From Lytechinus pictus (Eukaryota), in the NCBI RefSeq assembly GCF_037042905.1, contig NC_087251.1, positions 48,672,001-48,736,000 on the forward strand: DNA of 64,000 nucleotides, given 5' to 3'. The translations under genes and the position numbers were made by a program. This document shows, in pieces, positions 4,563-63,671 of the stretch. Under the pieces are notes generated by a model. The model did not search any database and was not told the origin of the DNA. It worked only from the letters and a program-made list of their open reading frames with translations. The first letter of the stretch is position 1. Every line of letters starts with the position of its first letter.

Positions 4563-4831
4563 TTCAGAGCAAAGGGGGTAGGATGTCTGGGTTTCCAAAG
4601 AAGGGTAAGTCTTTTCAAAGTGTTATGCAATGGGCCAGATCCATTGCTATGTCAGTGCATAGATTACATTATCTTATATCATCATAAATTATCATTAAGG
4701 AGGATGGAGGAAGGGAAATATTTGTTCGGCATTCTTCAAGTCCCTGGTTAGAAGTTACAAACCAAACTAGTCGATAAGTTGGGTATAGAAAGGAAAAAAA
4801 TATTCATGTATGTAATAGATGGCATTTTTAC

Positions 4832-5416
4832 CGTGCAGATACCGTGATGAGATTCTTGGGGTTGTAGGATACGCTAAAGTTGAAATGAAGTTGTTTCCTT
4901 AGAATTGGCAAAACGTTCAGCAACTCAGAAAAGTGTCCCCTGGTGGGCATCATCACGTGATCTCTTTTCAGCAATTTTAATCTGTCATAATAGGTTTTGC
5001 ATTTGGTAGACAGCTTAGAAAGGTATTCGGTAATGTTTATCTTCGCTGGCTTATTTTTGGCGACTTTTGGCTTGAAACATGATACCAGATCTTTGATTTG
5101 CAATCCATTGATCGTCATGAATGTAACCTTTGAACCAACATCCGAGGTATATTCCTGCCCAAATACAGCTAAGTTCATTCTGAAAACGACGTCGGCGTCG
5201 TCGATGACTTCCCCACAGCGGCTGTTGAGAAGGATACCAGAATTCCCGACAAGAGCACAAGACTTTACAGGGTGTTCGATCCAGTGAGTAAGATTCAATG
5301 TCCTCGATTTCCTTAGATCTTTGTATTTTTTCTTCATTGTCATGTCTCCAGGATCTACATCCGAACTGAATATTTGTATGGTCTCCCATGGTTTCATTCT
5401 CTTGTTAACCAAGTTT
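4832..5416 (-). CDS. ST8SIA: ST8Sia-like gene, catalytic exon with sialylmotif L
   Basis: CALVGNSGILLNSRCGEVIDDADVVFRMNLAVFGQEYTSDVGSKVTFMTIN; acceptor AG 5417-5418, donor GT 4830-4831, phases 2/2. Confidence 0.93.
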
Positions 5417-5734
5417 CTGTTTAAAACAAAATAAATCAGAAAATTGTCTATACTAATATTTATCGCTAGATGTATATATTAAGAATAAAACAATGTCTAA
5501 CATATATAAGCGAGTGTTTGGTAATTGTAATAAATAACTGATATTTTACATTTCTGTAATCTTGTCAACTGGCCTTACAAATTAATGTATGATATAGAGC
5601 TTTATATTTCTATCCTAATCTAATCTATCAAGTTCTGATTTGGGAAAATCAGCCTTTAATCATTTAAACTCTATCCTTTGTCGCCATTTTTTTTCACAAC
5701 CGTTCTAAGGTAATTTTACGTGTTACCCCCCAAA

Positions 5735-6361: not shown

Positions 6362-7150
6362 ATGTACATGTATAATTTCACACATTTGTATACTTTCTCC
6401 CATACTTGTACTGTATCAAAGCAATAGCTTTGATCCAGCTGAGGCATGGCGGCTTGTCATTGTTCAAAACCCACCTACACCCGACAAAAGAAATTATAAT
6501 TGGTATAGTGTCGAAAATCTGTTTATCTGACGGTCAGTCGGATAGGGGTCGCCCTGGCCACTAACCCGTCTCTGTGGTCTAGTGGTTAAAGCACCGGCGT
6601 TCAAAGGTTGGGGCCCGGGTTCGATTCCCGGCAGGTCATTTTTTCGGCATTGCCAATTTTTCCAAAGGGCAGATAGCTCTGGGAACCTTGATTTAAGCTA
6701 CGCTTACCATTGTTCTCTTCATCCATTTCTTTCACAAAATATTTAAATAAAAGAGTTGCCAAAGCTGTTGTACATGTATAATTTCACACATTTGTATACT
6801 TTCTCTCATACTTGTACTGTATCAAAGCAATAGCTTTGATCCAGCTGAGGCATGACGGCTTGTCATTGTTCAAAACCCACCTACACCCGACAAAGGAAAT
6901 TATAATTGTTATAGTGTCGAAAATCTGTCTATCTGACGGTCAGTCGGATCGGGGTCGCCCTAGCCACTCACCCGTCTCTATTGGTCTAGTAGTTAAGGCA
7001 CCGGCATTCAAAGCTGGGGGCCCGGGTTCGATTCCCGGCAGAGACATTTTGTCGGCATTGCCAATTTTTCCAAAGGGCAGATAGCTCTGGGGAACCTTGA
7101 TTTAAGCTACGCCTACCATTGTTCTCTTCATCCATTTCTTTCACAAAATA
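6362..7150 (+). repeat. Two head-to-tail ~406-bp units of a tRNA-containing repeat
   Basis: 'tgtacatgtataatttcacacatt' recurs at ~6363 and ~6769; each unit has a tRNA-like module (6568-6638, 6974-7046); homologous to the 37531-42345 copies. Confidence 0.9.
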
Positions 7151-7440
7151 TACATATTATATATGCCTCTATAATTTCAGTTTTTTGCTTCATACTTACT
7201 GTACATCAATGACAGATGATATGTTAAGCGTCCAGCTCTGTAACCCTTTATCAACAAGAGTCGTATGGGTGGTTTGCATGGCTAAGTCAATCGGGCAGAA
7301 TCCAAAATAGAAAACAAAGAATAAGACTTATTAAATTATAAGAATGTTATTCCAAGGTCTCGTCATTGAAATATGAGATTTAGGTTTTATGAGATCTAAT
7401 TATACTCGATATATTAATAGGCCTTACTTTAAGGCAAAGT

Positions 7441-12093: not shown

Positions 12094-13662
12094 CAGCGGC
12101 GTAACAGGGGTCGGTGGCCAGGGGGGGGGGCAAGAACAAAAAATTTCCCGGTCATATCATGGTATGAACAGACGTGATGGTGATGAGGTGACGATTTTGA
12201 GAGAGCCAGACATTGCGTATCATGCAGAATTTATCTTTTTAAAAAAAAGTTGCGAGCGAGCAAAAATTTTGACATTTTTAATACAAAAATCAAAATTTGT
12301 GATAGATTTTGACATGATATCCAGATAATGATTTATTTAACTCTTCTCTCTTTCCATTCCTTTTTTGTGGTCTGTACGCCACTGTCTTGACTGTGAACAG
12401 GATTCTTTGCGGCAGTAGCATGAATAGTAAAAAAAAAAACGAGGGGCGCAGTATGGCGCATGTGCTAAAAAGCTGCTTAATATAATATAAGTCCCGAGCG
12501 AGCGAAGCGAGCGAGAAAAAATCACCTTTTTATGAGAATCTATCTTTGAGATATTTTTTGACATTATATTCAGTAGATAAAATCATATCCTACACTTTTC
12601 CTTTGCTTTTCTTTCCTCCTTTTTTTCTTGGTTATAGAACTTTTGGGGACCAAGGCTCAACCCTTCCTTACTCATGTACGGCAGTGCTATGCGGTTGGGG
12701 TCCGGGGCGGAGTCCCGAGAACTTCTTGATATCAACCTCGCAGATTGCCGCTATTTTAATCAAATCGCGGGTAAATACAGAATATAGCTTTTATACAACA
12801 CATTTATTCAACCCAGTTAAACCAAGTAGGTTATTTTGAGGGGGCAAAACAAAGCAATGTGGGAAAATTTGTAAAAAGTCGCCAGCGAGCAAAAGAAGCT
12901 GGAAAAAGGTTGCCTATTGAAATAATTAAATTCCAATTATGTGATAGATTTTTCCATTATATTCAGCAAATAACAAAATTCATTGTTTCCATTCATTTCA
13001 TTATACGTTGTCTCCTACAATTTATTTATTTTCTCTTGGATGTGGAACCAAGACCCCCCCCCCCGCGCCTGTACGCCAGTAATTGAACGTAAAGCTTAAT
13101 GTAGGAAGGGTCCCTACAGGGGGGGGGGCGTTATAGAGCCATTTGAATGTTATAGATGAAAAGCCCCTACTGCATGGGGTCTGGGGCAAAGCCCCGGTAG
13201 CTTATTTGCATAAATTTAGCAAGCTTATGGCACAATGTTGTATGCAGTCCATCTTTCTTCCAGCTCTTTATTTTCAATCCTCGGCAGCCCGGTCGTGTTA
13301 TTTAGGTTTTGCTTGTCAATTTTCTTTGTTTTCCAATGTAGCTTTTGCTTTCCATTCTACCTTCATTTCCCGCTATTGTTTGCCATTTTGTCATCTTTTA
13401 ATTTATTTCCCTTCATGCTATTGCATTACATATGCCTATTTCGGAATGATTTGTTCTTTCTTAAATGTTCTTCTCTCGTTCCTTTTCCCGCTTTCCCTCC
13501 TTTTCCATTTAAAAAAATCTTCGTTTTCTTTTCCCTTTCCCTTTTCTTTTCCCCTTTCCTCCCCCTTTCTTTCTCCCTCCCTTTTCTTTCCCCCCCCCCG
13601 TTTTTTCCCCCGGTGAAATCCGCTAGGGGAGGCAGCTTGCCCCCCTGCCTGTTACGCCACTG
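12094..13662 (+). mobile_element. Non-autonomous hAT-type element (~1.57 kb)
   Basis: TIR CAG(C/T)GGCGTAACAGG; perfect 8-bp TSD CTCCCCTT (12086-12093, 13663-13670); same family at 56455-58050 and 63672-64000. Confidence 0.88.
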
Positions 13663-21105: not shown

Positions 21106-24100
21106 TAGTCCAGTCAATCTAGCCAGAATAGGGGGGTAACCCACCACTAATTGCAACACGAGATATTCCACTGAAATGCTTTCCAGGAAGGTCCCCTAAA
21201 CAACATACTAAAAGTCCCAAGAAATCCGAGCAGTGGAAATTTATGAAATTTGCATATTATGCAAATTAGCCATGAAAAATGATATAAAGAAGGGAAATAA
21301 TCCAAAGATTACAAATTAAATGTCCAAAATAATTTGATTTGAATGGAAATTCATGATAAATAACTGAATTCAATGTTTTCAATCAAAAGTGCAAAAATTT
21401 CTACCTCATTTGCATATTATGCAAATAAGCATCCTTATATGGAAAAAATGTCAAGATATTGTGATTTTTCTCATATAGACTGCTTGAAAACATTTCATTA
21501 ATGTTGACATCAATATGATACTATATCACTAAGCACGAGAATTCATCCCAATGCCTGAAAATTAATTTGCATATTATGCAAATTAGCCATTTAAAAAAAT
21601 AGAAAATGAGGAAATTAATCCAAAGATTACAAATTAAATGTCCACAGCAAGTAATTTTGAACATTATGAATAAAATAAGTTCAATGTCTTTATTTAAAAA
21701 AGCTAGCAAATCTGCCTCATTTGCATATTATGCAAATAAGTATCCTTATATGGAAAATGTCAAGAAATTTAGATTTTTATCACATTGACTGCAGTGAAAA
21801 CATTTCAGTTTTTCAAATTAATATGCTGCTATCACTAAGCATTCAAATGTATCCTAATATGATTTATATTCAAGGAAAAATACTGGAAATATGTTCTTCG
21901 CTTCCTAAGCGTTTGTCTGACAAGATGATGGGATTGGCAAGAACAAAGCACAGTATTTGAATTGGTGTGTAGTTTGTTTGAGTTGACAACCCTTTCTTAT
22001 ATGGATTGTGGGAACGACTTAGACTTTCTTGAAATTTCAGCGCATAAACATGATAAAGGGAGGCCAGGAAAAGCAAACTTATGGCAGGTAAAATCTGATG
22101 AGTAGTATCATTAAAAAGTGCAGCAGAGATTCCGTCTGGCCTAGTAGCTTCATGCAGGTTGTTTTCTTTAACAATTTCTTCAGTAGTCTGGCTACACCTG
22201 CTTGACTAAACAATATGTTATCTGGCCATATCTGGGTCAGGACTGGGTCCCAGGACTTCAGCTTCATCATCATCATGATCAGTGGTGAATACTAAGACTA
22301 AAAATCTTCGCCTTCCTTTAATAATGATATTCCAATGTAGTCATAGCTATTGATATTAAGGGCTCCAAACATGCTAATTGTTACAGCCTGGATCATTGTC
22401 AATCCGGTCAACAAATTATGTATTATAGGCTTGTCTACAAACCCTCTTATGGTCCTCTTTAATGCATTGTAGCAATTCTGAGCTTTACCTTACTGATGCT
22501 TTTGGAGCTCTAAAATGTGCAAGCCTTCCTAGCCTTTCTCTAAAACTCTTGACATCTTCCGACACAACTTATGTCCATTCTCTCATTGAGACAACTTGTG
22601 TCGGAAGAAGACATGGTTAACGGTGTGTTCTTGTTAAAGTCCTCTTGATTGGCATTCAGTCTCCTATGCTCGACTTGTCAGATTTCAGTACAGATCTGTA
22701 TGATTGTCCAAAGTACATCTGCATGACACTATTAAAGTCAGCATTCCTCCAGAAGTACATCCTTAGTCGTGCCATAAAATTTTATTCCTCTGGATAACCT
22801 CACAGTATACCCATGAGTAGCACATTGTGGCAAATAAATCTTGGAAGTGGTACACACTGTCTAATCAATGTTGGATGGTATTTGATGGTGATGTTAAGGG
22901 TGTTCCAAGCAAGTACTCATGTTCACCACCAAGACAAGTGATGATGATGATGGGTTCTTGTAAAGCGTCGGTATCCGCCTCAGCTGGGCGCTCATGGCGC
23001 TTGCTCAAAATAGGAAATATCTCACAAATTTCAATGTCTTCAAACAGTGCTTAGGATCACCATTCAGTTCAAATACTGTCCTAGTAATGCTACAATTGAG
23101 TTATTCTTGTCTTGGGATAATGTTGGAGTGGGGAACAGAAAGGTCTTCAGGTAAGACTCAAAAGTTTATTGGGTCTCTGCTCTCCTGATAAATTGGGGAA
23201 GGCTATTCCACAGCTTTGGTCCAGAGATGTAGAAGGCTCTGTCACCCCAGGTTGTGTGGCTGAGAGATTCCCTCAGCAATGCTTGAGCTGCTGATCTGAG
23301 ACTGCGTGTTGGTCTATGCTGAGATAAGAGCTCTGAGATGTAGGGTGGAGATTTATCATTAAGCGCTTTAAATACAAGGACCCCAAGTTTATAAGCTAAT
23401 TGGTGTGCTACAAGGACCAAATATTCAAAGCTAATGTGCTTTTATTTGTACGGGTGTGACATCTTGTGCTGATCACTTGGCAATCCAGGAGTTGCTAGCG
23501 TGGACTATACTCTCAAGAAACGCAAAGTCTCTATACAAAGTCAAGAAGAGAGCAAGACTTGGATGGAAATAATGAAACATTCAAGCAGTGGGATTCATGT
23601 AGAATGGACTCATCATTGTACAATATGAGTGGGGTAACTGCTCGTGACAAAACTCAATATCAACCAAGCAAGAAGTATAGGGAAGGCCATCATGGTTAAT
23701 ACACATAATCTACATGGAATTTTAGAGGAAAGTATCACTTATGTGTTTCCTTGAATATTTATAACATGTCGGATGCTTATTTGCATAATATGTAAATTAC
23801 ACTTCAGATATTAAGCTGATTATTAATTTATTTGCCATTCTTAGTGATCACATCATATTGATCTAGACTGAAATGTTTTCATAACTGTTTTTGTGAGAAA
23901 AATCAAAATTTCTGGATTTTTTTCCATATAAAGATGCTCATCATGCAAATGAGGTAGATTTATTTACGATTTTTTATATAAAACATAAATAAATTTGTAA
24001 AACTTATCATGGGCTTCAGTTCAATTCGTATTGATTGCATTTGATTTCCAATATTTGGATTATTTTCCTTATTTGTAATTTATTATGGCTAATTTGCATA

Positions 24101-24755
24101 AAATGCAAATTTTGTGATTTTCCTATATGCTTGTATATTTAAGGACTTTTAATATGGTGTTTAGGAAACCTTCCTGTAAGGTATTGCCATATTCCAATTT
24201 CAATAGATAATCTACTTGCATTTTTTTAGGGATGTATCACCAGTGTGTTTTCTTGAATATTTATAACATGTTAGATACTTTTATTTGCATAATATGCAAA
24301 TTACACTACAGACACTAAGCTGAATACAAATGTATTCAACGTCCTTAGTGATAGCAGCATGTAAATTCCAACATTAATGAAATTTTCAAGCAGATAATGA
24401 GAGAATAATCACAATACCTTGACATTTTTCCATATAAGGATGCTTATTTGCATATTATGCAAATGAGGTAGATTTTTTGCACTTTTGACAAAAAACATTG
24501 AATACCGTTACTTATCATGAATTTTCGCTCAAATTGAATTGTTTTGGACACTCAATTTGTAATATTTGGGCTATTTTCCTTATTTTTCTAACTTGTTATG
24601 GCTAATTTGCATAATATGCAAATTTCATAAATTTCCACTGCTTGGATTTCTTGGGACTTTTAGTGTGTTGTTTAGGGGACATTCCTTGAAAGCATTGCAG
24701 TGGAATATCTCGTGTTGCAATTAGTGGTGGGTCAAACCCTATATTGACTGGACTA
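21106..24755. mobile_element. Decayed long-TIR DNA transposon (Academ-like by termini and TSD)
   Basis: Termini TAGTCCAGTCAAT...ATTGACTGGACTA; inverted homology over several hundred bp (21106-~21520 vs ~24350-24755); 3-bp TSD CTA (21103-21105, 24756-24758). Superfamily is inferred. Confidence 0.75.
22938..23425 (-). mobile_element. L2-type LINE 3' fragment nested in the long-TIR element
   Basis: YKLGVLVFKAL...PPYISELL...PTRSLRS...GDRAF...GPKLWNSLP; 3' end 'aagcgccatgagcgc...acgctttacaag' plus (CAT)n tail. Confidence 0.8.
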
Positions 24756-25220: not shown

Positions 25221-25949
25221 TTACCGGACTCCAACGTCACCGTTGCCATGATTTCCATTTGCTGTTGGTATTGGCTGGATAGAGAAAACGCTACCATTCC
25301 GTGGTCGACGACCATAGAGATCATGTGATCGCATGTCCATGGGCATCGATTGCCGTCTCCTCATCGAAATCGCATGGGCTTTCTTCGTCTCCGAGATGAT
25401 GACGAAAAGCCTATAAAACTGAAGCAAGAGCAGCAGGGCGTTTTTACAAGTAAAGAAGATCATAGACTGGTCGAAAATGCGAAACTTGATGATGAGATAA
25501 AGTCGGATGAAAAGATAAGGGCCGTCTTGGAGTATGACGCTGGTCATTAGCGCCCACGTCTCCGTGCCGCAGCAGAAGATGTTCATCGCCGTCTGTTGCA
25601 ACTTTAACCGCATCTTGACGTCATCGTCAGGTTTTGACACCTTTCCGAAGACGCGACGTTTCCTAGCCTTGGTGGCGGTCAGGCCAAGCGTGAACTGCAG
25701 AAGACTCCATGACCAGATTCCAAGGATGACGTAAAACATATCCGGGTGGCAAGCGATGGCGTCGAGTTTCAATGTCTCCAATGAAAATTCCAACATGTCG
25801 GCGGCCATACCGATGTAGACCAATAGGAGCTGAGAGAGCTGATCACGTGTTAGTTGCCCGCGAGGCATCATCCAGCGGCCAACAATGAGAATCAACATAA
25901 GAGTTTGTTGCAACGTTGTTGAGAAGAGTTGCTGCATGCCGTATACTTG
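25221..25949 (-). CDS. TMEM26: TMEM26-like paralog A, exon 3
   Basis: GRWMMPRGQLTRDQLSQLLLVYIGMAADMLEF and QDGPYLFIRL...FFTCKNALLLLLQFYRL; acceptor AG 25950-25951, phase 0. Confidence 0.92.
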   Translation of the reverse strand, partial: QVYGMQQLFSTTLQQTLMLILIVGRWMMPRGQLTRDQLSQLLLVYIGMAADMLEFSLETLKLDAIACHPDMFYVILGIWSWSLLQFTLGLTATKARKRRVFGKVSKPDDDVKMRLKLQQTAMNIFCCGTETWALMTSVILQDGPYLFIRLYLIIKFRIFDQSMIFFTCKNALLLLLQFYRLFVIISETKKAHAISMRRRQSMPMDMRSHDLYGRRPRNGSVFSIQPIPTANGNHGNGDVGVR

Positions 25950-26452
25950 CTGTAAGCAAAAAAAAAAATGGACCAAATAAACAAAAAATAGGAAGGGAAA
26001 TCATATTAGCATGGTTGAATAAGATAACTGTTTAAAAGGAACACCCAACAATATAACTAGAAAAATGAATTCCCCCAAACTCTAATGGTTTACCGGATGT
26101 TAACAATTAAAGCTCTTTTCTATTTTACGTTGGCTATAGAAAAAATACTTTCGTAAAAATGAGACTTGTCTTTCTTATACTCTTCCTTCTTTTATCTTCT
26201 CATTTTCTCTACTTAAAATATAAAAAGATGGGGTATCCCCCCTCTCCTTGTAGCAGCGCGTTTGCATGATTCTTTTAATATGGCTAGTAAGTACTTTTTG
26301 GCACATTTTAGATGACAATAGGGAGTTTTCGCATCACGGCGCAAAACGAATTTAAGAATAGCGTAAATATAATAAAAATGGCTGTCAAATGACAATGAAC
26401 AGCTGAGATCTTTGTCGAAATTTGGTGAACCGGAACAGCACTTTTGTCTTAA

Positions 26453-32725: not shown

Positions 32726-33049
32726 CATACATACATATATATGACAGTCATTTCTTAGCTTTCTTCTTATAAAAGAACATAGATATATAATTAGATAACT
32801 CGAGCGTGAAGCGCGAGCTCTTTTTTTTTTTTGGGGGGGGGGGATTTCATGTTTTTTGTCCTGAAAAATTGAACATTTTGAGCAATGTTTGTGGTCCTGA
32901 ACATTAAGATGCGTATGTAGCAAATAATAACTGCGAACGTGATCAGTGCGAGCAGATATTTTTGATATACGCTCTAGTCTGATCGAAAGGGAAGTGTTAA
33001 AGGACTGTTTGCAGTTACCCATTAAGGCGTTACATATATCAACAATCAA

Positions 33050-33900
33050 ATAATGCGAGCGCGAAGCGCGAGCTGAAAATTTGACTTTCCGACCTAAATA
33101 CTGGACATTCTAAGCACTTTTTGCAATCATGAAAAGAATAGGTATATAACTATATGATTGATGCGAGCGCGAAGCGCAAGCGGAAATAAAAATGAGATTT
33201 CAGACCTAAAAACAAGACATCTTAAGCACTTTTCTAATCATGAACAGGATAGGTATATAACTATACAATTGATGTGAGCGCAAAGTGCGAGCGGAAACAA
33301 AATTGAGATTTCAGACCCCAAAAACGAGACATTCTAAGCACTTTTCTAATAATGAAGAGGATAGGTATATAGCTATACACTTGATGCGAGCGCAAAGCAC
33401 GAGTGGAAATAAAAATGAGATTTCAGACCTAAAAACGGGACATCTTAAGCACTTTTCTAATCATGAACAGGATGGTATATAACTATACAATTGATGCGAG
33501 CGCGAAGCGCGAGCGGAATTAAAAATGAGATTTCAGACCTAAAAACAGGACATCTTTAGCACTTTTCTAATCATGAACAGGATGGTATATAACTATACAA
33601 TCGATGCGAGCGCGAAGCGCGAGCGGAATTAAAAATGAGATTTCAGACCTAAAAACAGGACATCTTTAGCACTTTTCTAATCATGAACAGGATGGTATAT
33701 AACTATACAATGATGCGAGCGCGAAGCGCGAGCGAAATTAAAAATGAGATTTCAGACCTAAAAACAGGACATCTTTAGCACTTTTCTAATCATGAACAGG
33801 ATAGATATATAACTATACAATTGATGCGAGCGGAAACAAATTGAGATTTCAGACCTATAATTGGGACATTCTATTCATGATTTGTAAATCAAGAAAATGA
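33050..33900. repeat. ~8 tandem copies of a ~110-bp unit
   Basis: 'gatgcgagcgcgaagcgcgagcgga...ttcagacctaaaaac...aactatacaatt' at ~33052, 33160, 33271, 33383, 33493, 33603, 33712, 33823. Confidence 0.92.
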
Positions 33901-34387
33901 TGGGTAATTGGATATATTCTTACAATGTGAGCGCGAAGTGCGAGCAGAAAATTTTTGACATTGTGATCTGAAACTCCACACTGAATTTAATATGGTATGA
34001 ACAGATAAAGAAAAATCAGACAAACATAAGAATAAAGATTTGATCAAAATCCGACAAGGAATATCACAGTTATTGCATTTTAAAGATTAGCATTATTCCG
34101 GTGTTTTAAGCATGTCTTCATTAATATTCAATGAGCAAACTGATGTCATATCCCCACTTGTTATTTTGTATTTTATTATATAAAATTATGTTTATTTAAT
34201 ATTTTCCCTTCAAGAACCAAAAAAAGTTGAATTGACAACTGATTTAGTCCATTAGATATTCTTCGCTGCAACTTATTTCATTATAAGGGAGACATATCAT
34301 TCACACTGGTATGAAAAAATGAAACAATTTTTATTCCATGTAATAACACAAGAAACATGATAGTGGGGATGTGACACCTTCAACCCA

Positions 34388-37481: not shown

Positions 37482-37530
<49 letters not shown>

Positions 37531-37676
37531 TGTGAAAGAAATGGATGAAGAGAACACTTCGTATGTCATTGTTCAAAACCCACCTACACCCGACAAAGGA
37601 AATTATAATTGGTATAGTGTCGAAAATCTGTCTATCTGACGGTCAATCGGATCGGGGTCGCCCTAGCCACTTACCC

Positions 37677-37748
37677 GTCTCTGTGGTCTAGTGGTTAAGG
37701 CACCGGCGTTCAAAGCTGGTGGCCCGGGTTCGATTCCCGGCAGAGACA
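37677..37748 (+). tRNA. tRNA-like cloverleaf, anticodon TCA, inside repeat
   Basis: Same as 38657-38728 except one variable-loop base; followed by a T-run. Confidence 0.55.
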
Positions 37749-38290
37749 TTTTTTCGGCATTACCAATTTTTCCAAAGGGCAGATAGCTCTGGGGAACCTT
37801 GATTTAAGCTACGCCTACTATTGTTCTCTTTATCCATTTCTTTCACAAAATATTTAAATAAAAGAGTTGCCAAAGCTGTTGTACATGTATAATTTCACAC
37901 ATTTATATATATATATAAATGTGAGAAATCATACATGCACAACAGCTTTGGCAACTCTTGTATTCAAATATGTTATGACTTGTGAAAGAAATGAATTTAA
38001 TTTCTATCACCAGTCACAATATATATATATATATTATGGGCGGAAATCCCAGGGGGGAATGCGTCCCCTACCAAAAATAGTAGGGAGGACACATCAAACG
38101 TCCCCCCTACTATTTTTGGTCTTTCATGATGGAGAAAAATTTATCATTCACAATAAAAATAAAACATGTATTTTGGACTAATTGACCTTACATTTCGGGA
38201 TGAAAACCTTGTTGTTGTTTTTTTGTTTTTTTTTGCTTGTCAAATTTTCCAGCTCCTGGTCCCCCTACCTTTTGGGACAAATTTCCGCCC

Positions 38291-38324
<34 letters not shown>

Positions 38325-38656
38325 GGCATCACCAATTTTTCCAAAGGGTAGATAGCTCTGGGGAACCTTGATTTAAGCTACGCCTACCATTGTTCTCTTC
38401 ATCCATTTCTTTACAATATTTAAAAATAAAAGAGTTGCCAAAGCTGTTGTACATGTAAAACTTTACACATTTGTATGTATACTTTCTTCCATACATGTAC
38501 TGTATCAAAGCAATAGCTTTGATCCAGCTGAAGCATGGCGACTTGTCATTGTTCGAAACCCACCTTCACCCGACAAAGGAAATTATAATTGGTATAGTGT
38601 CGAAAATCTGTCTATCTGACGGTCAATCGGATCGGGGTCGCCCTAGCCACTAACCC

Positions 38657-38728
38657 GTCTCTGTGGTCTAGTGGTTAAGGCACCGGCGTTCAAAGCTGGG
38701 GGCCCGGGTTCGATTCCCGGCAGAGACA
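38657..38728 (+). tRNA. tRNA-like cloverleaf, anticodon TCA (38690-38692), inside repeat
   Basis: Acceptor GTCTCTG/CAGAGAC, D GTCT/AGGC, anticodon stem CCGGC/GCTGG with loop GTTCAAA, T CCGGG-TTCGATT-CCCGG; A and B boxes intact; T-run immediately after. Function unknown. Confidence 0.6.
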
Positions 38729-38822
38729 TTTTTTCGGCATCACCAATTTTTCCAAAGGGTAGATAGCTCTGGGGAACCTTGATTTAAGCTACGCCTACCA
38801 TTGTTCTCTTCATCCATTTCTT

Positions 38823-38861
<39 letters not shown>

Positions 38862-38865
<4 letters not shown>

Positions 38866-41800
38866 GGTCATGAGCCAAGGAGGGGTATCAGAACCTGACT
38901 GCTACTGTGGCGTTACACTGATTTACTAAGTGAGCCAGTACTGCCAGCAAACGCCAACGCCGAGCCCCAGGCGGCGGAAAATAACCTGGCAAACTCGGGT
39001 AACCTGAAAAGGGTAGTGGGACCCTGATGGAGGAAATGCCATCTAAAGGCGGAGGAATCATAATTGATCAACGACATCCACAACTCACCAACATGCAACT
39101 GTGGCCAGCATGGTGAGTCAAGGCCACACCCCCTTCAAGACTATGGCAGCACAAAGAAAGAAACGGCCCTCAGTCCCCAGCAGCTCTGGATTGCCCAGCT
39201 ACGGGAGCGGTTGTGGCAAGGAAGGAGCAGAGGGTGCTAAGAATCTCTGGGCTAGGACAGGCTCCTTAAAGGATGTGACCATCTGTACATATAATGTACG
39301 TTCCCTTTTAGGAGAGGATAGGCTATGTGAGCTGGAAAAAGAACTAGGCAACATCACATGGGACATAGTCGGATTGTGTGAGGTTAGACGCCGCGGGGAA
39401 CATCTACAACATCTGCTGTACACAAGGGGAAAGGAGAAAAGTAGCATAGGAGGGTAGGTTTCCTTATTCACAAGGCGATAGCATCCAATGTCATTTGCTA
39501 CAAGAGCACTTCAGACAGAGTATCCCAGATCATCCAAAAAATCTCCAAGAAACAAACCATGAAAATCATTCAAGTATACCTTCCAACATCTAGCCATACT
39601 GATGAAGAGGTTGATATGGTCTATGAGGAAATTGCTAAACTACTTGATGAGGACAAAGCAAACTTTACTATAGTTATGGGAGATTTCAATGCTAAAGTTG
39701 GTAAAATGGAAGATAATAGCGAGGTGATGCTAGGAAAATTTGGCACTAGGAATGATAGGGGAGATCGTCTACTGGAATTTGCTTTAAGCAGAGGTCTTGA
39801 GGTAATGACCTCTTTCTTCAAGAAAAAGGAACATCGAAAATGGACATGGCAAAGCCCAAATGGCACCACTAGGAACGAAATCGATTTCATTCTAACAAAC
39901 AGACCGGACATCGTAAAAGACGTTTCCGTGCTAAACCGCTTCAATACTGGAAGTGACCACAGGCTTGTGAGAGCAAAAATGCATGTTAATTTCAAGCTAG
40001 AAAGATGTAAACTAATAAGGAAGAAGAACGCCAGCCTAAATGTGGGCAAACTTAAACAATGTAAGGACGAGTTTCAACTACATTGTACAGCTAAGGAACA
40101 GATTCCAAGTGCTTCAAGATGAAGTAAACCAGGAAGATGTAAATGATATCTATGATAAATTCTATCACACTGTCCAAAATTGTGCTCTTGAGATGGCAGG
40201 GAAAAGGGAAAATCAAACAAATGACAAGATCACAAAGGAGACACTTGATCTGATGAGAAAAAGGAGACAGATGAAGGTATCAACACAGAAGGATAGCATA
40301 GAATATATGGAATTGTGCAAAACCATTAGAAAACGTATGAAAAGTGAAATTCGCAGCTTCAACATAAAAAAGTCCAAGAGATCATAAAAAATAATAGCAG
40401 CTACAAAGCCACCAAACGTAAACTCTCCAGTGGGAAATCACGACTGATAGCTATTAAAGGGGAGGATGGAAGTGTTATTCATGACAGAGACCAGATAATT
40501 AATCATGTGAAGGATTTCTATCAACACCTGTACTCCAGCAAGGTCCATGTTGACACACCAATCATTGCTCAAGATACAGATGAGGACATACCACCGGTAG
40601 GAGTAGACGAGGTTGCTAAAGCCCTGCAAGCAATGAAGCGTGGTAAAGCACCAGGTAGTGATGAGGTGCTGGTGGATGTCCTTAAAGATGGAGGTGATGT
40701 CATCCTGGAACAGCTGGCCAAGCTGTTTACACTCTGTTTAGTAAAAACACAAACACCAGACAGCTGGAACAATGCAATCATAATCCTCATCCACACGAAA
40801 CTGAGGATACACAAAGGATATTAAAATGTATAGGCCAATTAGCTTACTTTCAAATACCTACAAATTATTTACAAAAGTCCTAACAAACAGAATCACTGGA
40901 ACCCTAGATTTTAACCAACCGAGGGAACAAGCCGGATTCAGAAGTGGTTTCTCTACTACAGACCATCTTCACACACTTAACCAACTATTAGAGAAGACTT
41001 GCGAATACAGACAACCCCTGTGCGTGGCATTTGTAGACTTCGCACAAGCTTTTGACAGTGTAGAATTTCAGGCAGTAATAACAGCCTTACAGGTACAAGG
41101 TGTGCACCATAATTACATCAAACTCATTCAGGAAATGTATAGCCAAGCAACTGCAACCATTCACCTGCACAAAGACAGTGATGAATTCCCCATTAACAGA
41201 GGAGTGCGACAGGGAGATACCATTTCACCCAAACTGTTCAATGCTGCACTGGAGGAAATAATACGTAAATTAGACTGGGAAAGTACGGGGCTAAACATTG
41301 AAGGTGAGTGTCTCCACCACCTGAGATTTGCCGATGATATCATTCTAATCACTGATGATGGCCACAAGCTAGAAAATATGCTCAACGATCTCAACACTGA
41401 AAGTAACAAAGTAGGTCTGAAGATCAACATGAAAAAGACAAAAGTAATGTTCAACAAATTTGCTAAGGAGGAAAGAATCATAATGGATAATTCTGAAATC
41501 GAGAAAGTAGATCATTATATCTACATTGGGCAACACGTCACAATGGATCATGAACAACTGGATGAAGTTAAAAGGAGGACAAGAGCTGGATGGATCGCTT
41601 TTGGGAATTTCAATGACATTATGAAGAGCAATATGCCAATTTGCCTTAAGAGAAAAGTATTTAATCAATGCGCTATACCGGCAATGACCTATGGTTCTGA
41701 AACCTGGTCTGTAACAAAGAAAATGGAACAGAAATTAAAAACCACTCAACACAGTATGGAACGTATAATGCTACGGATATCAAAACGTGACAGGAAAACC

Positions 41801-42108
41801 ATACAATGGATTAGGAGCCAGACTAGAGTAATAGACATAATCAAAGCAATTAAATCAACGAAATGGAGATGGGCTGGCCACCTTGCAAGATCACATGATA
41901 ATAGGTGGACCAAACGCATCATAGAATGGAGACCATGGCTAGGATCACGAAATCGGGGTAGACAAAAATTGAGATGGAGTGACGAGCTCACAAAATTTAT
42001 TGGCATAAATTGGATTGCTTCAGTACAAGACAAGCACCTTTGGCACCAACTTGAGGAGGCCTTCGCCTTGCAGTGGGCTGAACATGGCTGATATGATGAT
42101 GATGATGA

Positions 42109-42186: not shown

Positions 42187-42193
<7 letters not shown>

Positions 42194-42345
42194 AAGTTAT
42201 ACATGTACTACAGCTTTGGCAACTCTTTTATATTTAAATATTGTGTGAAAGAAATGGATGAAGAGAACAATGGTAGGCGTAGCTTAAATCAAGTTTCCCC
42301 AGAGCTATCTACCCTTTGGAAAAATTGGTGATGCCGAAAAAATGT
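42187..42345 (-). repeat. Inverted fragment of the tRNA-containing repeat
   Basis: Reverse complement of the unit's 3' part, ending at the tRNA terminator; shares 'catcacc/gggtagat' variants with 38324-38825. Confidence 0.85.
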
Positions 42346-43739
42346 ATCTTATATATACATATTTATAATTTCACCCTTCTTATCGGATATTAAAGGTCTG
42401 TTGGGAAAGTATACCTCAACCTCGTTCCTATTTAATTCCTCCTTTATATTCATGAAAAGCCAAATCCCCGTCAGAATCGGTAATGTTTTACTAATATCTT
42501 ACTGTCCGATTTATCCACGCGCTGCATGTTGCTATAGTATCAAACTATAATCGACAGGTCAGCAATTTAATACGTGATTATAGTGTTTGACGATCGGTCG
42601 GTCACTTTCGCAGTCGAATTTGGTATGAAACGATCTATCGAATGCTTCACTTCTCTCACTGAATTCACTTTTTTTTCCTTAAAAAATAAACGAAAACCGA
42701 CATTATTTGTATTTGGAAAGGGCAAATAAAAGCAATATTTTGTGAGTGGGCATATCCGTCATTTTAATAATATCATCGATAAGTGATTTTGAACTTTATT
42801 TACTATAACATTTAATAATAGACTAAAAGAAAGTGTGATTACGCCATTCATTTTAGACCAAAAAAGCAGAGCTGTGTATGAGAAATAGGGGGAGTCTAAA
42901 GTAGCATATAGGGCGGCCTCCCGGCATATGCTATAGCAGAATTTAAAAGAAAGAATGGGAAATAGGAAGACAGGAAGTGTATGAAAAAGAAAGGTCTGGG
43001 CCTGGTCAACTGAATATTGAGGGAAAGTATATGATGTGCCCCCCCCCCCCCCCTCGGCATCAAAATATCATGCGCTGGACCTGTAACTTGATGCCATAGA
43101 ATCATAAATGGGTATGAATGCCAAATATTACACCATCAAGCCCCGTCTCACTCTTTTCCCCATCTAACTTTGATTACAACCACTGCACTAATTCCCCATG
43201 CATGGTTTTAAGTGCATTTTGACGGCATCATGAATTCATCTTCTTTTCCATCCTACATTCATTCGTGCATGATACACCCACTCACTTACACACACTCACG
43301 CCGTTTACTGCCCCTACAACTCATTTGCGGTAACACATTCACACATAATTTAGCGTTTCGTGGAAGGATCACTTATCGGATGTTTTGTCCGTCACTTACA
43401 ATAGTAACAGTGCTTCTCCGCAAATCAAAATCAATGAAAGTTGTCTGATAAAACAGGGCTTTTTTGGTAAAATGTCCGACAAGTCTTTTCATGAAACGTT
43501 CATTAGATCACCTCTGTCACATTAAATTGCGTTGGTTTATTTTCTGCATGAGCTGTGTTTTATCAAATTTTATGCATCAATGTCGTCCCAATAATTATTC
43601 ACCAATATTCCATATTGAAATTTAAATACTTGCTTTTCACTAGTCTTAACTTACAGAAATGAAAAGATGCTACTTTTAATAATAATATTTTTTTTTCTTT
43701 TATCCTCTTAATCGAGGGAGTTATTCACAATAACATGTA

Positions 43740-48295: not shown

Positions 48296-48969
48296 TTACT
48301 TTGAAAGAATGCTCTGTCGTCTTATTCTTATATCTGCTTCACTGGACATTGGCACCCTGTTTGGCGCCCTCACTGGACTCCCATTGAGATTGTCCCCATC
48401 GCTTTTCTGATTTTCGGCAGGAACATCTGCCTGACTCGATGAATCGTCGCCGAATTTTCTTTTCATTTCTTCGTCAACAGCGTACGTAAACGCCTTTTCG
48501 TTCATCGTCAAACTTTCGGATACCAAACTGGTACCGTCGACCATCTCAATATTGTTATTCTCCACGTCATTTCCGTCAGTGTTGTTGGCTACAAAGAGGC
48601 TGCCTCGCTTCCGTTGCCTAGATTCCACTAGCATGGCGTACACGCGGTATATCTGAAGTAGGATAACCGTCAGGTTCTTCAAGGCGTAGAAGTACACCGA
48701 GGATGCTTCATCGCCAAGTATTGCGATTATGATCAGCCGAAACACCAAGAACGGTCCATCCTGTATTGTGATGGATATTATCGCCTCTCTGAACTCTGTC
48801 GATTGGACCCAGTCGTTCTGGCGGATGTTGGGTGCTGTCCTTCGACGTTGCATCATCCGACTGAGTGGTCTGGCCTCCTTCTTTGCAACGTAAAGGGATA
48901 CATCACCGACAGTCTCACGTCGCTTTGAGAGAAGCTGGTTGACAGCATCTACCCATACATTAAGAATGG
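48296..48969 (-). CDS. TMEM26: TMEM26-like paralog B, exon 4
   Basis: IQDGPFLVFRL...FYALKNLTVILLQIYRV; acceptor AG 48970-48971, phase 1. Confidence 0.88.
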
Positions 48970-49718
48970 CTGTTTGTGAATATGCAAAAGAAAACAATAA
49001 TACATGTATCAATGTTATGAATTCAACTATAATGCCTGCTTGAATATCGATCAAAATATAATTTAGGTATGTGGATAAACAATCAAAGTTTAAAGATACA
49101 ATTACTATCACCTCAATTGTTTTATATAAAGTCAATGAGTTTACATTCAGGAAATCATGTATATTATACTATCTGCTTTTTGCATTACATGCAGCATATC
49201 GACCCTTTGTGTTTAAGTTGTTTATAATTATTTCTATATTGCATTCCTAATTAATTTTCATAACGATGTTATGACTCTCATAATTCCTAAATACCTTGAA
49301 TACTCTTACTTCTATCTTTTTTTCTTTTCTTAGCACTTAGCGATTTGAAACATAACTATAAAACGCTTCATAAATGTTATGTATTATTATTATCATTACG
49401 ATCAGGAGGCCGTATCAAAAAGTTGTCAACACGGACAAATTGTCTTCTTTTAACAATAACCTTAATAACAGTTGGAGGACAGTCCTTTTCAGCTACTCAA
49501 AACTGAGGATTTCACTAGATTGTTAGCGCTAACAAAATTTAGTCAGGTCTGACGATTTTAAATTCATGAAATGCTTCCATTTTTTATACAGTTGTACATT
49601 CATACAGATTTATGTGTATGTTGAGGGGTTCCCTTAAACATTACGCGCCTCTCTCTGTATTTATTTTACGATTTTCATGGATAAATGATCATTATCTCGC
49701 GGATTCGTTCGGCCTTAC

Positions 49719-50046
49719 CGTTTTCCCGCTTCTCATCATGAACCCTGTTCCTCTTCTCCGGAATGGCGATGCTGAATTGGAAAACGGCTATACTCCACAG
49801 CAGGAGGACAATCGTCGTAATGGCCCTGCTGCACCCGAAGTGACCATTGGTGATGATGACGGCAACGAACTCGACGATGTCTTCACCCGCCCCAACCAGG
49901 ACAAGGAGGAGCTGGGCCACCTTCTCGCGGGTGAAGTTGTCCCGTGGCAGGAGCCATCGGCAGAAGATGAGTACAAAGACTACGGAATATTCTACTACCG
50001 TTGTGAGACGCTCGTACTCCCTATATGTCTTGGCCACGAATGGCAT
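49719..50046 (-). CDS. TMEM26: TMEM26-like paralog B, exon 3
   Basis: CRWLLPRDNFTREKVAQLLLVLVGAGEDIVEF; cctcag acceptor (phase 0), G|gtaagg donor (phase 1). Confidence 0.88.
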
Positions 50047-50207
50047 CTGAGGATAACAGAGAGGGAGAAGTTTGATCAATATGATGTCCTGTACGTTTTA
50101 TAGCCAAATTCCAAGCTTTTGAAAGGCTCTCAAACATGTCACAGCAAAGAGTTTCCTCCTTTCTTGCTTGCTCTATAGTATAAATGCATCAGTGAGATGC
50201 AGATAAT

Positions 50208-56454: not shown

Positions 56455-58050
56455 CAGTGGCGTAACAGGCGGGGGGCAGGGGGGGCAAGCTGCCCCCCCC
56501 CCCCTGGTGGAGCTCACCGGGAAAATAAATAAAAAACGGGAAAAATAAAAAAAAGGGGGAAGAAAGGGAAAGGGAAAGGAAAGAAAAAAGGGGAAAGGGA
56601 AAGGAAAGGGAAAAGAAAACTAAGAAAAAACATAAAAAAGGGAAAACAGAAAGATAACGGGAAAAGGAAGGAAAAAAGAACAAGTGAGAAAGAACAATTC
56701 GCCCCGATATACAAATACATTAACATGATTAGTAAGACAGGGAAATAAATTAAAGATGACAAAAAGGCAAACAAAAGCGGGAAATAAATGCAGAATGGAA
56801 TAAGCCAAAATCTAAATTGGAAAATAAAGAATAGGGACAAGATAACGTACACTACCGGGCTGCCGAGGATTGAGATAACGAGCGGGAAAAAAAAATGGAT
56901 GGTATATAGCATAATGTCGTATGAAAGTCTATCATAAACTTGCTAAATCTCCAAAGGCTTTGTCCAATTAAGAGTCAAGACCCCGTGCAGTGGGGGCTCT
57001 TCATCTGTAACCTTTAATGGGTTCTATAACGGGCCCCTATATGGACCCTTCCTGCATTAAGCTTTACGTTGAAGCACTGACGTACCGGGGGTGGTTCCAC
57101 AGCCAAGGGGAAATAAAATAAAATAAAGGAGGCAGTGAAATGAGATGAATGAAAAAAAATATATGACATAATATTTGCTATAATGATGTAAAAATCTATC
57201 ACATAATTAGAATTTCATTTTTAACAGGCCATTTTTTTTCTCGCTCGCTTCGCTCGCTGGCGACTTTTTACAAATGTTCACACATTTGCTATGGTGTGCC
57301 CCTCACAATATTTGGATGATTACGATACACAACTGCATTGAATGTATGTGTTGTGTTAAAGCTATATAAATATACACGCAATTTGATTAAAATAAGTGGC
57401 CATCTGTAAGGTTCAAAATGGCTTTGATATCAAGAGGTTCCGGGGCTCTGCCCTGGACCCCACCCATAAAGCACTGTTATATAGATGAGTTTGGACCATG
57501 GCCCCCAAAAATTCTACAACCAAACAAAAAAAAATGAGGAAAGAAAGGAAAGTGTATTATATTTTACTGAATATCACGTTAAAATCTATCTTCATGTTAG
57601 ATTCTCATGAAAAGGTGATTTTTTTTATCTCGCTCGCTTCGCTCGCTCGAGACCTATATTAAGCTACTTCTTGCCAGAAGCGCCATACTCGACTCGGCCC
57701 CCTCGAGCATATAGAGCTTCGCCCTGATGCTCACAATCATAACAAAAATCCTGTTCACCGTGGCGTACAAAAAAAGAGAGAAAAAAGGAAAGAGAGGAGG
57801 GTAAAATATGATATCATCTTTTTAACATTATGTCAAAATCTATCACAAAATTGGATTTTTGCAATGAAAATGTCAAAAAATTTTGCTCGCTCGCTTCGCT
57901 CGCTCACTTATATATATATATATATTTGCCCGATACGCCATATCGCCCCCTCAAAATGTTTGCCTTATGACGCCATTGCCTGTTCCATGATATGACCGGG
58001 AAATGTTTGGCTCTTGCCCACCCTGGCTACCGACCCCTGTTAAGCCGCTG
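56455..58050 (-). mobile_element. Non-autonomous hAT-type element (family of 12094-13662, inverted)
   Basis: Same TIRs; perfect TSD GTGGCCGT (56447-56454, 58051-58058); lies inside another element starting ~56400. Confidence 0.88.
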
Positions 58051-58139
58051 GTGGCCGTCGTCAAATTTATGTACCAGTTGGCAAAATTGAGGATAGAGGA
58101 GAAAAATAAAAAGAAAGAAAGAGAGAGAGAAAATATGAA

Positions 58140-58159
58140 AAATGAAAAGAAAGAAAGAG

Positions 58160-58232
<73 letters not shown>
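58140..58232. repeat. (AAAG)n microsatellite
   Basis: Direct reading. Confidence 0.95.
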
Positions 58233-58234
<2 letters not shown>

Positions 58235-58877
58235 GCCTGATAGAAGTACTACATGTAATTTCGAAGAAGAAGAATGTTCGAAGCTACTGGGCGCTCTGCC
58301 CCATACCCCACGCAGTATGGGCTCTTCATACCTTCAAAGGGCTCTGCAACGCCCCCCGTATTGACCCTTCCTACATTTAACATTTACGTTCAATCACTGG
58401 CCTACAGGGAGGGGGGGTCTTGGTTCCGAGGGGTAAATAAAGAAATTAGGAGGCAACGTTATGAAACGAATGAAAAACAATGAAATATGTTATTTGCTGA
58501 ATGTAATGTAAAAATCAATCAAATAATTAGAATTTCATTTCAAAGGGCGATTTTCTTCGGGCTCGCTTCGCTCGCTGCCGACATTTTAAAGATTTTCCCA
58601 CATTACTATGGTGTGACCCCTCAAAATATTTATTTCATTGAGCAATTGCGTTGAATTAATGTGTTGTGTAAAAGATATATACTGGGAATATATTTTATCT
58701 GCGATTTTATTAAAAATAGTGGCAATCTGTATGGTTTAAAATGACTTTGATATCAAGAGTTTCCGGGCGTTTCGTCAGACGCTCTTACACGATAGCCAAT
58801 TTTCATTATAACCTGTCCGAGGTTGCAAAAATACCAGCACTGTCATGACTGTCTCTCAACGTCTTGTTATATGATAA

Positions 58878-62105: not shown

Positions 62106-63044
62106 TCAAAGTTCATCGTTTTGCAATGATTCATCATCTTCACAAATTTCAAGGGCCACTTCTTGGAATCCAGATACTGCTGAAACACCAGACTGAGCTC
62201 CCTCTTGTCCTTGGGGAACCTCACTGCTTCTGGTTTCTTCTTCAACCTGGAAAGCGTCCTCGCCTTGGTCTGTGGCGCCATCGTCAGTGTTATCACTTCC
62301 TGCTCGTGAGATAGTGACCACGACGCTTTCGGTGTTGGTTTCCCCTTCGCCCGTGAAGCCTCCATTTTGAAGACTTTTTGCATTGACAACCGGATGTGAA
62401 TTCCCGGCCGGCAGCGTCGAATGGCGCTTTACAGAGAGGCCTTTGCGTCTCCTACGGAAACCTTGGTGCACCTTCACACTGACGCGGTACGACTGCAGCG
62501 CGACAATTAGTCCGTTTTTCGCGGCGAAGAAGATGAGTGTCTCCCCTACGTATCCTGTCGAGAACATGATGTAAAGGCGGAGGATCAAGTACGGGCCGTC
62601 CTGCATGAAGATACTCACCATCAGAGACCATATCTCGCTTTCGCAATAGCAGCAGCAGGAAGCTTTACAGTTGAATCCATTAGGTTTGCTCCCTTGGACT
62701 GCGGTTGAATCGTCGGAAGAGTCACGTGATTCGATTGGACCGGCGATGCGAGGTTTTCGCTGCTTCACCGCCGTTAACCCCAGGGGAATCTGTAGGAGGC
62801 TCCAGCACCAGACAGCGATGATGAATCCAACGTAGATTTTATCACACGCCACAGCCTCGATACTCAGACTGTCCGTTGCAAATTCCAGCATATCTAGAGA
62901 CATTGCTGTCAGAGCCAATAGCAGGCTGGAGAACTGATCATGTGATAGCTTGCCTTTGGGTGCCATCCAGCGACCGAAGATGATGACTAACATCATGATT
63001 TGCTGGAAGATGGAGGAATAGCGCCGACTCAAATCATGTGTTGC
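62106..63044 (-). CDS. TMEM26: TMEM26-like paralog C, last exon (upstream exons not found in window)
   Basis: GRWMAPKGKLSHDQFSSLLLALTAMSLDMLEF; QDGPYLILRL...FFAAKNGLIVALQSYRV; acceptor AG 63045-63046, phase 0. Confidence 0.92.
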   Translation of the reverse strand, partial: ATHDLSRRYSSIFQQIMMLVIIFGRWMAPKGKLSHDQFSSLLLALTAMSLDMLEFATDSLSIEAVACDKIYVGFIIAVWCWSLLQIPLGLTAVKQRKPRIAGPIESRDSSDDSTAVQGSKPNGFNCKASCCCYCESEIWSLMVSIFMQDGPYLILRLYIMFSTGYVGETLIFFAAKNGLIVALQSYRVSVKVHQGFRRRRKGLSVKRHSTLPAGNSHPVVNAKSLQNGGFTGEGETNTESVVVTISRAGSDNTDDGATDQGEDAFQVEEETRSSEVPQGQEGAQSGVSAVSGFQEVALEICEDDESLQNDEL

Positions 63045-63671
63045 CTGCAAGTGAAGCAACATTGGAAATACTGAATTATTAGTTTGTTCATTTATAAATC
63101 CGTTGATACTATTTTTACATGGACAATAGAGATCATTTCTTTCTACTACGTGATGAATGTAACATCTTTCGGGTTCATCCCATGATGTGATCGGTTTAAG
63201 AAAATTTCAGTAATGACGAATGGAAATGACTGAAACAGAAAATCGATCAAGAAATACTCGTGTTTGTAGGCATATGCCCATATTTCATTGCAGTGTAACC
63301 TAAATTCATTTTTTTTCTCCATGTAGTATTTTGAATAAGACTGCACTGTCCCAATTTGTGTGGAAGCTAAAAGTACTATCAGACATGGTAAAATCAAAGA
63401 TACTACAAGGGGAAGATCGGAATGTACAAATAACGCGTAATGAAACGCTCGGGAAGAGCGCCCCACAGCGTTGAGTAAGTAACGACCTTTTTTACCTTTG
63501 CGTATCGCGAGATGGTTGTATACAAAACATATGAGAGAAATGGTGAAGGGTTGAAGGAATAGACAATTTTTACATTTTAATTTTCTTTTATTCATTTTTT
63601 TTTCTTAAATTAAAGATGAATATATTTCAGAGGTTTCTTTGTATTCCCATGTACCACCCTTGAGCCCTCTC

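Follow-up and report, generated by a model that had tools for sequence, protein, structure and literature searches.

A tRNA-like cloverleaf with a UCA loop, kept in fold between two families of a repeat with Penelope-like insertion anatomy in Lytechinus pictus

A repeat present in about 2,000 copies in the Lytechinus pictus genome carries a complete tRNA-like cloverleaf with a UCA loop, and the fold of this module was kept by compensatory stem changes between two sister families of the repeat. The cloverleaf is best read as the place where Pol III starts and tRNA-processing enzymes cut in the RNA cycle of the repeat itself, and not as a decoder, a reading to which we assign a probability of roughly 0.6. 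The repeat is very probably a passenger of Penelope-like elements (PLEs). PLEs and their passengers need RNA templates longer than one unit; if the preferred reading is true, host tRNA machinery can replace a ribozyme in a PLE passenger, and a ribozyme-free passenger with a full tRNA fold and an antisense off-switch offers a small testable substrate.

The analysis covered a window of 64,000 nucleotides, that is, the whole stretch of DNA under study, and copies retrieved from the rest of the genome. The carrier of the module is a non-coding unit of 405 bp, in which the cloverleaf occupies positions 205–276. Copies of the unit are head-to-tail tandems, circularly permuted and variably 5′-truncated, with two fixed 3′-ends, the short E1 and, one tail of 54–56 nt further, the long E2. 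The window contains the following features:

38324..38825 (+), inserted copy 1.3 units long (an incomplete unit, 38324–38447, and the unit beginning at 38448), closing at the short E1 and flanked by (TA)n on either side
38602..38656 (+), degenerate antisense counterpart of the T arm, the acceptor 3′ strand, the T-run, and the D arm; predicted mask of the cloverleaf
38657..38728 (+), tRNA-like cloverleaf, copy 4, intact, UCA loop with G32 (ARAGORN, Rfam, pairing check)
38729..38734 (+), T6 run immediately 3′ of the discriminator, resembling a Pol III terminator; it also pairs in the predicted rod
37677..37748 (+), tRNA-like cloverleaf, copy 3, intact (ARAGORN, Rfam, pairing check)
37564..37909 (+), 5′-truncated unit reaching the long E2, with the tail of ~55 nt
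37509..37556 (−), inverted 5′-truncated piece ending at E1; it forms a PLE-type inverted pair with 37564–37909
37912..37996 (−), second inverted fragment of the 3′-end of the unit
6363..7151 (+), tandem insertion of two units of an older variant; its cloverleaves, at 6568 and 6974, are damaged
42188..42349 (−), piece from the 3′ part of the unit that lacks the tRNA, within (TA)n(TG)n sequence

An earlier note on this DNA had described a 72-nt four-armed fold with A and B boxes, a T-run right after the discriminator, and TCA in all four copies, the last two being intact, and had proposed scoring with a tRNA model. Each of these points was borne out. Both intact copies, at 38657–38728 and 37677–37748, form 21 of 21 cloverleaf pairs over 72 nt with arms of 7/4/5/5, including two G-U pairs, in the D and anticodon stems. 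Their loop reads G32-U33-UCA-A37-A38, the variable loop has 4 nt, the discriminator is A, and T6 follows. ARAGORN called three of the four window copies as tRNA (6974, 37677, and 38657), and the Rfam tRNA model scored three of them at 62.2 and 60.9 (the intact copies) and 37.8 bits, with a gathering score of 29 and E-values from 4e-11 to 2e-4, a match far beyond chance. The TCA is kept even in copy 6568, where the acceptor 3′ strand is damaged, and in copy 6974, which has one insertion and an interrupted T-run. The module had also been placed mid-unit, about 200 bp from the start; the internal position was correct, while the notion of a start was not, the copies being circularly permuted.

The UCA anticodon is shared with tRNA-Sec (RF01852), from which the cloverleaf differs by its 72 nt, its 4-nt variable loop, and its 7/5 fold, without a long variable arm or an extended acceptor–T helix, so the earlier statement that this is not tRNA-Sec stands. 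Separate tRNA-Sec genes of 86 nt lie at two other places in the genome (76.9 bits). The repeat also accounts for ~2,000 genes falsely called as tRNA-SeC/suppressor in the genome. The resemblance to tRNA-Glu/Asp does not establish ancestry, because among the host tRNA types within the fetched loci there is no single nearest one: Glu(CTC), Arg(CCT), and Gly(TCC) all match at 49–53 of 72 positions (~70%); Gly(TCC) as a parent would require one anticodon change. A single parent, a register-shifted Glu-TTC, was likewise dropped owing to the tie of Glu, Arg(CCT), and Gly(TCC) among these same types. In the modules mascRNA and menRNA, a tRNA-like fold is proposed to act as an RNase P/Z cutting signal inside a longer RNA. 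These are modules of host lncRNAs without A/B-box gene anatomy, whereas here a four-arm cloverleaf lies in a mobile element; the Rfam mascRNA/menRNA match to the window reached 28.9 bits, below the gathering score of 42.5.

In the 812-Mb genome, a 26-nt tag of the unit has 1,923 exact matches. The whole-region matches with the best scores are 98–99% identical, indicating that this family (family A) is young. On contig C2 (8866018–8883729; loci L064 and L065), the repeat has turned into a local satellite, an array of ~44 homogeneous units of 406 bp. For the analysis of insertion ends, segments were taken from loci found by searches, not at random, and the C2 array, the host tRNA-Glu loci, and the sister-family loci were excluded. 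The 3′-end lay within the locus in 175 of the 177 distinct segments; 67 ended at E1, 75 at E2, and 33 elsewhere. (TA)n adjoined 131 of the 142 fixed ends, versus 4 of the 33 other ends. The 5′-ends were flat, evenly spread across the unit, and no pile-up at G1 or after the discriminator was seen among the fetched segments. Fifty inverted pairs were found, two of which, at locus edges, were dropped; 17 of the remaining 48 had an unclassed end, and the 31 classed pairs comprised 29 E1/E2, two E1/E1, and no E2/E2 combinations (p 5e-7). In other species, the unit had 0 matches in metagenome data (two scans) and in viral sequences (one scan), sets that cover no eukaryote relatives. No published account of the repeat was found in the literature searched, though it may be catalogued in Repbase/Dfam or in supplements. 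At 39068–42091 (+) the window holds a LINE, broken by frameshifts, whose frames encode an endonuclease and an RT; we take it to be RTE-like by its motifs. The microsatellite that follows it on the 3′ side contains a unit fragment.

According to the available text of PMC8557442, PLEs are characterized by partial tandems, an inverted 5′-truncated copy, a tail at one end, a (TA)n bias, and non-autonomous families. The unit has the traits of the non-autonomous kind, namely partial tandems with variable 5′ truncation, inverted pairs with one tail, and the (TA)n bias. The earlier claim that the module is borne by a transposable element was right. The same genome contains autonomous PLEs with intact ORFs of 700–1026 aa carrying RT and C-terminal GIY-YIG motifs, named here by motifs read by eye (Pfam gave no family for three of three PLE ORFs tested). 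Hammerhead cores lie in their 3′ regions, which have two alternative ends 52–68 nt apart, both in (TA)n, and 16 of 17 opposite-strand pairs within an autonomous PLE locus join one end of each kind. The PLE tails fall into a group of 52–56 nt, a range that includes the unit tail, and a group of 61–68 nt. The last 106 nt of the unit weakly resemble three of 14 long PLE ends (3, 5, and 8 of 1000 doublet shuffles); all three belong to the 52–56-nt group and none of five to the 61–68-nt group, a resemblance that is suggestive only. In the 52–56-nt group the hammerhead cores begin 76–110 nt before E1, and the cloverleaf ends ~100 nt before E1, a loose positional parallel. No autonomous PLE sharing the 3′-end of the unit was found among the PLE loci examined by two protein searches and 3′-UTR comparisons. 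The partner candidates raised by the latter proved to be merely nested unit insertions in shared (TA)n, together with AT-rich weak matches.

PLEs and their non-autonomous families such as MRC1 share partial tandems, 5′ truncation, the inverted copy, the one-end tail, and (TA)n targets with the unit, as far as the available texts of PMC8557442 and PMC4209133 go. The unit differs from these accounts in having no ORF, a tail of 54–56 nt versus the stated 30–40 bp, and no clear autonomous 3′ identity found; an internal tRNA-like module is not mentioned in the available parts of the two texts. The PLEs of this genome offer some observations of their own. At least 10 different 3′-ends of PLEs, each with a hammerhead core and all two-ended in (TA)n, were noted (L081–L110, L209–L274), and the nearly strict rule of one long and one short end in PLE inverted pairs bears on the PLE integration mechanism. 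A very young high-copy PLE family (L255–L257, L264, L273, and L274) has a 909-aa ORF ending in TGA, a hammerhead core with CCGA in place of CTGA, and an internal (TA)n in its 3′-UTR that collects other insertions.

The repeat behaves like an animal retrozyme or a non-autonomous PLE, but it falls outside the retrozymes for want of a hammerhead. Animal non-LTR retrozymes (PMC7229834; bioRxiv 10.64898/2026.07.22.740005) are likewise described, in the available texts, as dispersed tandems of non-coding units, each a few hundred bases long, whose RNA is predicted to be highly self-paired, as is that of the unit here, and they are proposed to be PLE passengers. Their defining trait in these texts is that every unit holds a type I hammerhead, in whose place the unit here has a full tRNA-like gene with a terminator and an antisense mask; the word “tRNA” is absent from the available preprint text (bioRxiv 10.64898/2026.07.22.740005). 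No hammerhead core with GAAA was detected on either strand in the two families, and Rfam found no hammerhead in the 64-kb window. Family B contains a lone 7-nt word resembling a hammerhead core. A candidate at a CTGAAG..GAAA-like word of family A was rejected, as it has no stems I/III, is not kept in family B, and fails the strict core. Judging by the available text, the SINE-like repeat Sm-alpha of Schistosoma (PMC2770079, PMC6155905, PMC8490949) comes closest as a precedent, since part of it derives from a tRNA. According to PMC2770079 and PMC6155905, it is also high-copy and non-autonomous, and tRNA finders call >1,000 genes in it; it differs by an active hammerhead and a tRNA-Gln(TTG)-like part with no stop anticodon, and the available parts of these papers report no terminator, covariation, or antisense mask.

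The sister family, B, first found beside a PLE, is older, ~65–70% like A, and aligns across the whole unit. From 120 candidates 40 were scored, and decay was counted on 35 rows after removal of one family-A row. Between A and the majority sequence of B the cloverleaf is identical at 62 of 72 positions with no gap, versus 194 of 300 columns in the rest of the unit (p 3e-4). Positions 7–26 and 47–65, which contain both boxes, are identical, and G32, U33, UCA, the discriminator, and T6 are common to both. The eight stem changes affect three pairs on both sides (2–71, 6–67, and 28–42) and two pairs on one side, and break none; the simulated p was 0.023 for none broken and 0.007 for three double changes. 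These compensatory changes uphold the earlier view that the fold is not due to chance. As only two families were available, five pairs carry the covariation, and the fact that both families have TCA does not reach significance. The third-family candidates examined turned out to be degraded copies of A or B, tRNAs of the host, or SINEs of other kinds.

Within the families the picture is different from that between them. The B copies have changed at 116 of 1706 tRNA positions (6.8%) versus 290 of 3881 in the flanks (7.5%, p 0.40); TCA is present in 24 of 29, the anticodon has changed at four of 84 positions against the 7.5% of the flanks, and the loop at six of 169 (3.6%, p 0.07). Among the A copies beside PLEs, 28 of 1677 tRNA positions (1.7%) versus 98 of 4518 flank positions (2.2%) have changed (p 0.26), with TCA in 26 of 27 and one of 81 anticodon positions altered. 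Across the genome, 1,704 of the 1,782 copies whose flanks match exactly still have the original loop, which fits the youth of the family. A sample collected by a T-arm pattern showed less divergence in the tRNA than in the flanks (41/3362, p 4e-6); it was set aside as ascertainment because the pattern itself fixes part of the tRNA. Thus, no purifying selection on genomic copies was detected in either family, although a small selected subset of the ~2,000 would escape this test. A fold kept between the families together with even decay of the copies indicates selection on the transposing source elements and not on the inserted copies; it is likely that the module is selected for the element.

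The unit RNA has a second predicted fold, which competes with the cloverleaf. When the tRNA with its T-run was reverse-complemented and compared with the 55 nt upstream of the cloverleaf, the match was better than in any of 500 shuffles for A and than in 494 of 500 for B. In equilibrium predictions for unmodified RNA, the unit folds into a rod (z −5.4 in A and −6.3 in B, 40 shuffles), in which the acceptor, D, and T stems have P ~0, the anticodon hairpin has P 1.0 (A) and 0.78 (B), and forcing the cloverleaf costs 23 (A) and 28 (B) kcal/mol. The acceptor stem is predicted to be kept with a leader of 0–10 nt and lost at 15–20 nt; the antisense copy would thus mask the cloverleaf unless the RNA begins within ~10 nt of G1. 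In the same model the isolated cloverleaf folds poorly, with P 0.19 (A) and 0.004 (B) for the D stem and 0.01 for the anticodon stem of B. The rod is less cleanly kept than the cloverleaf: its 59 pairs show 13 one-sided and three two-sided changes between A and B, while seven are broken and eight gapped in B. Pair 2–71 of the cloverleaf covaries, and position 2 is unpaired in the rod. Mirror symmetry of the whole unit is supported for A alone (189 versus 152 ± 11 in shuffles, with a maximum of 184 among 60; B, 163 versus 151 ± 11). Two folds appear to be kept, the cloverleaf for RNA starting at G1, the start that the A and B boxes would give, and the rod for longer RNA.

Abundant unit-length RNA, linear or circular, is a further mark of non-LTR retrozymes. 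In a quarter of each of three RNA-seq runs, 1502, 1091, and 782 reads per 12.9 million matched the unit, about equally on both strands, mostly 90–99% alike and lying only partly on the unit. These paired-end data showed no discrete RNA ends, that is, no site where many molecules start or stop; they neither support nor exclude a 72-nt RNA because long paired-end libraries cannot show one. Four contig runs, whose type is guessed and which have no RNA record, gave single unit contigs, one of which, of 437 letters, closes on itself; this is ambiguous because tandem DNA yields the same.

The preferred reading can be put as a sequence of steps. Pol III would start at one cloverleaf within a tandem, and most transcripts would end at T6; the occasional transcript that runs on through a unit would end at the T6 after it. 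From such a transcript host RNase P/Z would cut away the leading cloverleaf in its folded state, the second staying masked, and the product would be a unit-length self-paired RNA, perhaps circularized, which the reverse transcriptase/GIY-YIG protein of a PLE might copy into (TA)n. The tRNA module would then stand in for the missing hammerhead ribozyme; hammerhead cleavage with circularization is the standing model for PLE and retrozyme RNA in the available texts of PMC4209133 and PMC7229834. A tRNA-sized RNA would be the by-product, for which a stop anticodon with G32 is maybe the least harmful loop. This specific route by Pol III and RNase P/Z is rather less likely than not. Every unit has, besides T6, a second run of T5 (A) or T4 (B), so read-through by Pol III should be rare, which speaks against the model, as do the flat 5′-ends and the RNA-seq without discrete ends and with equal strands. 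From the roles listed in the earlier note, the processing signal is the best supported one, and the stand-alone UGA suppressor found no support, given the neutral decay of the copies, the kept G32, the lack of a discrete RNA in the data seen, and the predicted masking of the fold in longer RNA.

The module could alternatively be a relic, a captured tRNA gene with an inverted duplicate kept solely for a stable self-paired rod, as in retrozyme circles, with the cloverleaf irrelevant. The rod is indeed far stabler than the cloverleaf in the unit context, its pairs include the one-sided and two-sided changes given above, the anticodon stem is common to both folds, and the copies decay neutrally. 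However, the acceptor pairs 2–71 and 6–67 changed on both sides (p ~0.02, two full pairs among four changes), and the tRNA strand is identical at 62 of 72 positions versus 36 of 56 columns in its antisense partner, a bias that a pure rod constraint does not predict, making this reading unlikely. A role at the DNA level, in which the A/B boxes recruit TFIIIC/Pol III and thereby open or insulate chromatin while the RNA is incidental, would suit the identity of the box-holding positions and the kept T6, but it leaves the compensatory changes of the acceptor and anticodon stems and the antisense mask unexplained, and we regard it as improbable. An ordinary tRNA-derived SINE mobilized by a LINE would also have a tRNA-derived part with A/B boxes, a high copy number, and 5′ truncations. 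Here, however, the tRNA is internal and closed by T6, the tandems are permuted, inverted E1/E2 pairs occur, and the 5′-ends do not pile up at the tRNA; this origin is hardly credible unless some LINE shares the 3′-end of the unit, and the earlier argument against an ordinary SINE head agrees with the flat 5′-ends and the two fixed 3′-ends.

Two further readings let the UCA decode. Copies yielding a mature charged tRNA that reads UGA would be in keeping with the complete fold, boxes, and terminator, with the loop unchanged in nearly all A copies and its UCA, G32, and U33 the same in both families, and with the slightly lower decay of the B loop compared with the flanks. In tRNAs position 32 is normally a pyrimidine. 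With G32 present and ~70% identity to any host tRNA compared, the cloverleaf has no clear synthetase identity; moreover, the anticodon is unprotected in the copies, the intact PLE ORFs (736–1026 aa) have no internal TGA needing read-through, and ~2,000 active suppressor genes would presumably be costly. A functional opal suppressor is therefore very improbable. The repeat might instead make a UGA-reading tRNA-like RNA, with UCA kept through two families for its own use, either in read-through or in docking on UGA-ending ribosomes and so capturing new reverse transcriptase. The candidate docking target is the 909-aa ORF ending in TGA, which belongs to the most numerous young PLE family found. 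We hold this variant to be a long shot too; if true, it would mean a transposon-borne RNA with a nonsense anticodon, in ~2,000 copies, in an animal.

Some other features were noted beside the repeat. Other tRNA-derived repeats, with TCG- and CAT-loop heads (L075 4610–4683, L179, and L006 2335–2406), received ARAGORN tRNA calls and are ordinary SINE-like. In the window, paralogous membrane-protein exons with a QDGPY/F motif form a local cluster at 25221–26000, 48296–49168, 49675–50097, and 62106–63206 (−), which we take to be a TMEM26-like family, and an exon with sialyltransferase-like motifs lies at 4828–5478 (−). A tandem repeat of ~110 bp at 33035–33950 is kin to a dispersed palindromic GC-rich repeat (12094–13662, 17000, and 56455–58767), and nested inverted repeats at 21106–24755 have 266-nt arms 3 kb apart in a foldback-like arrangement.
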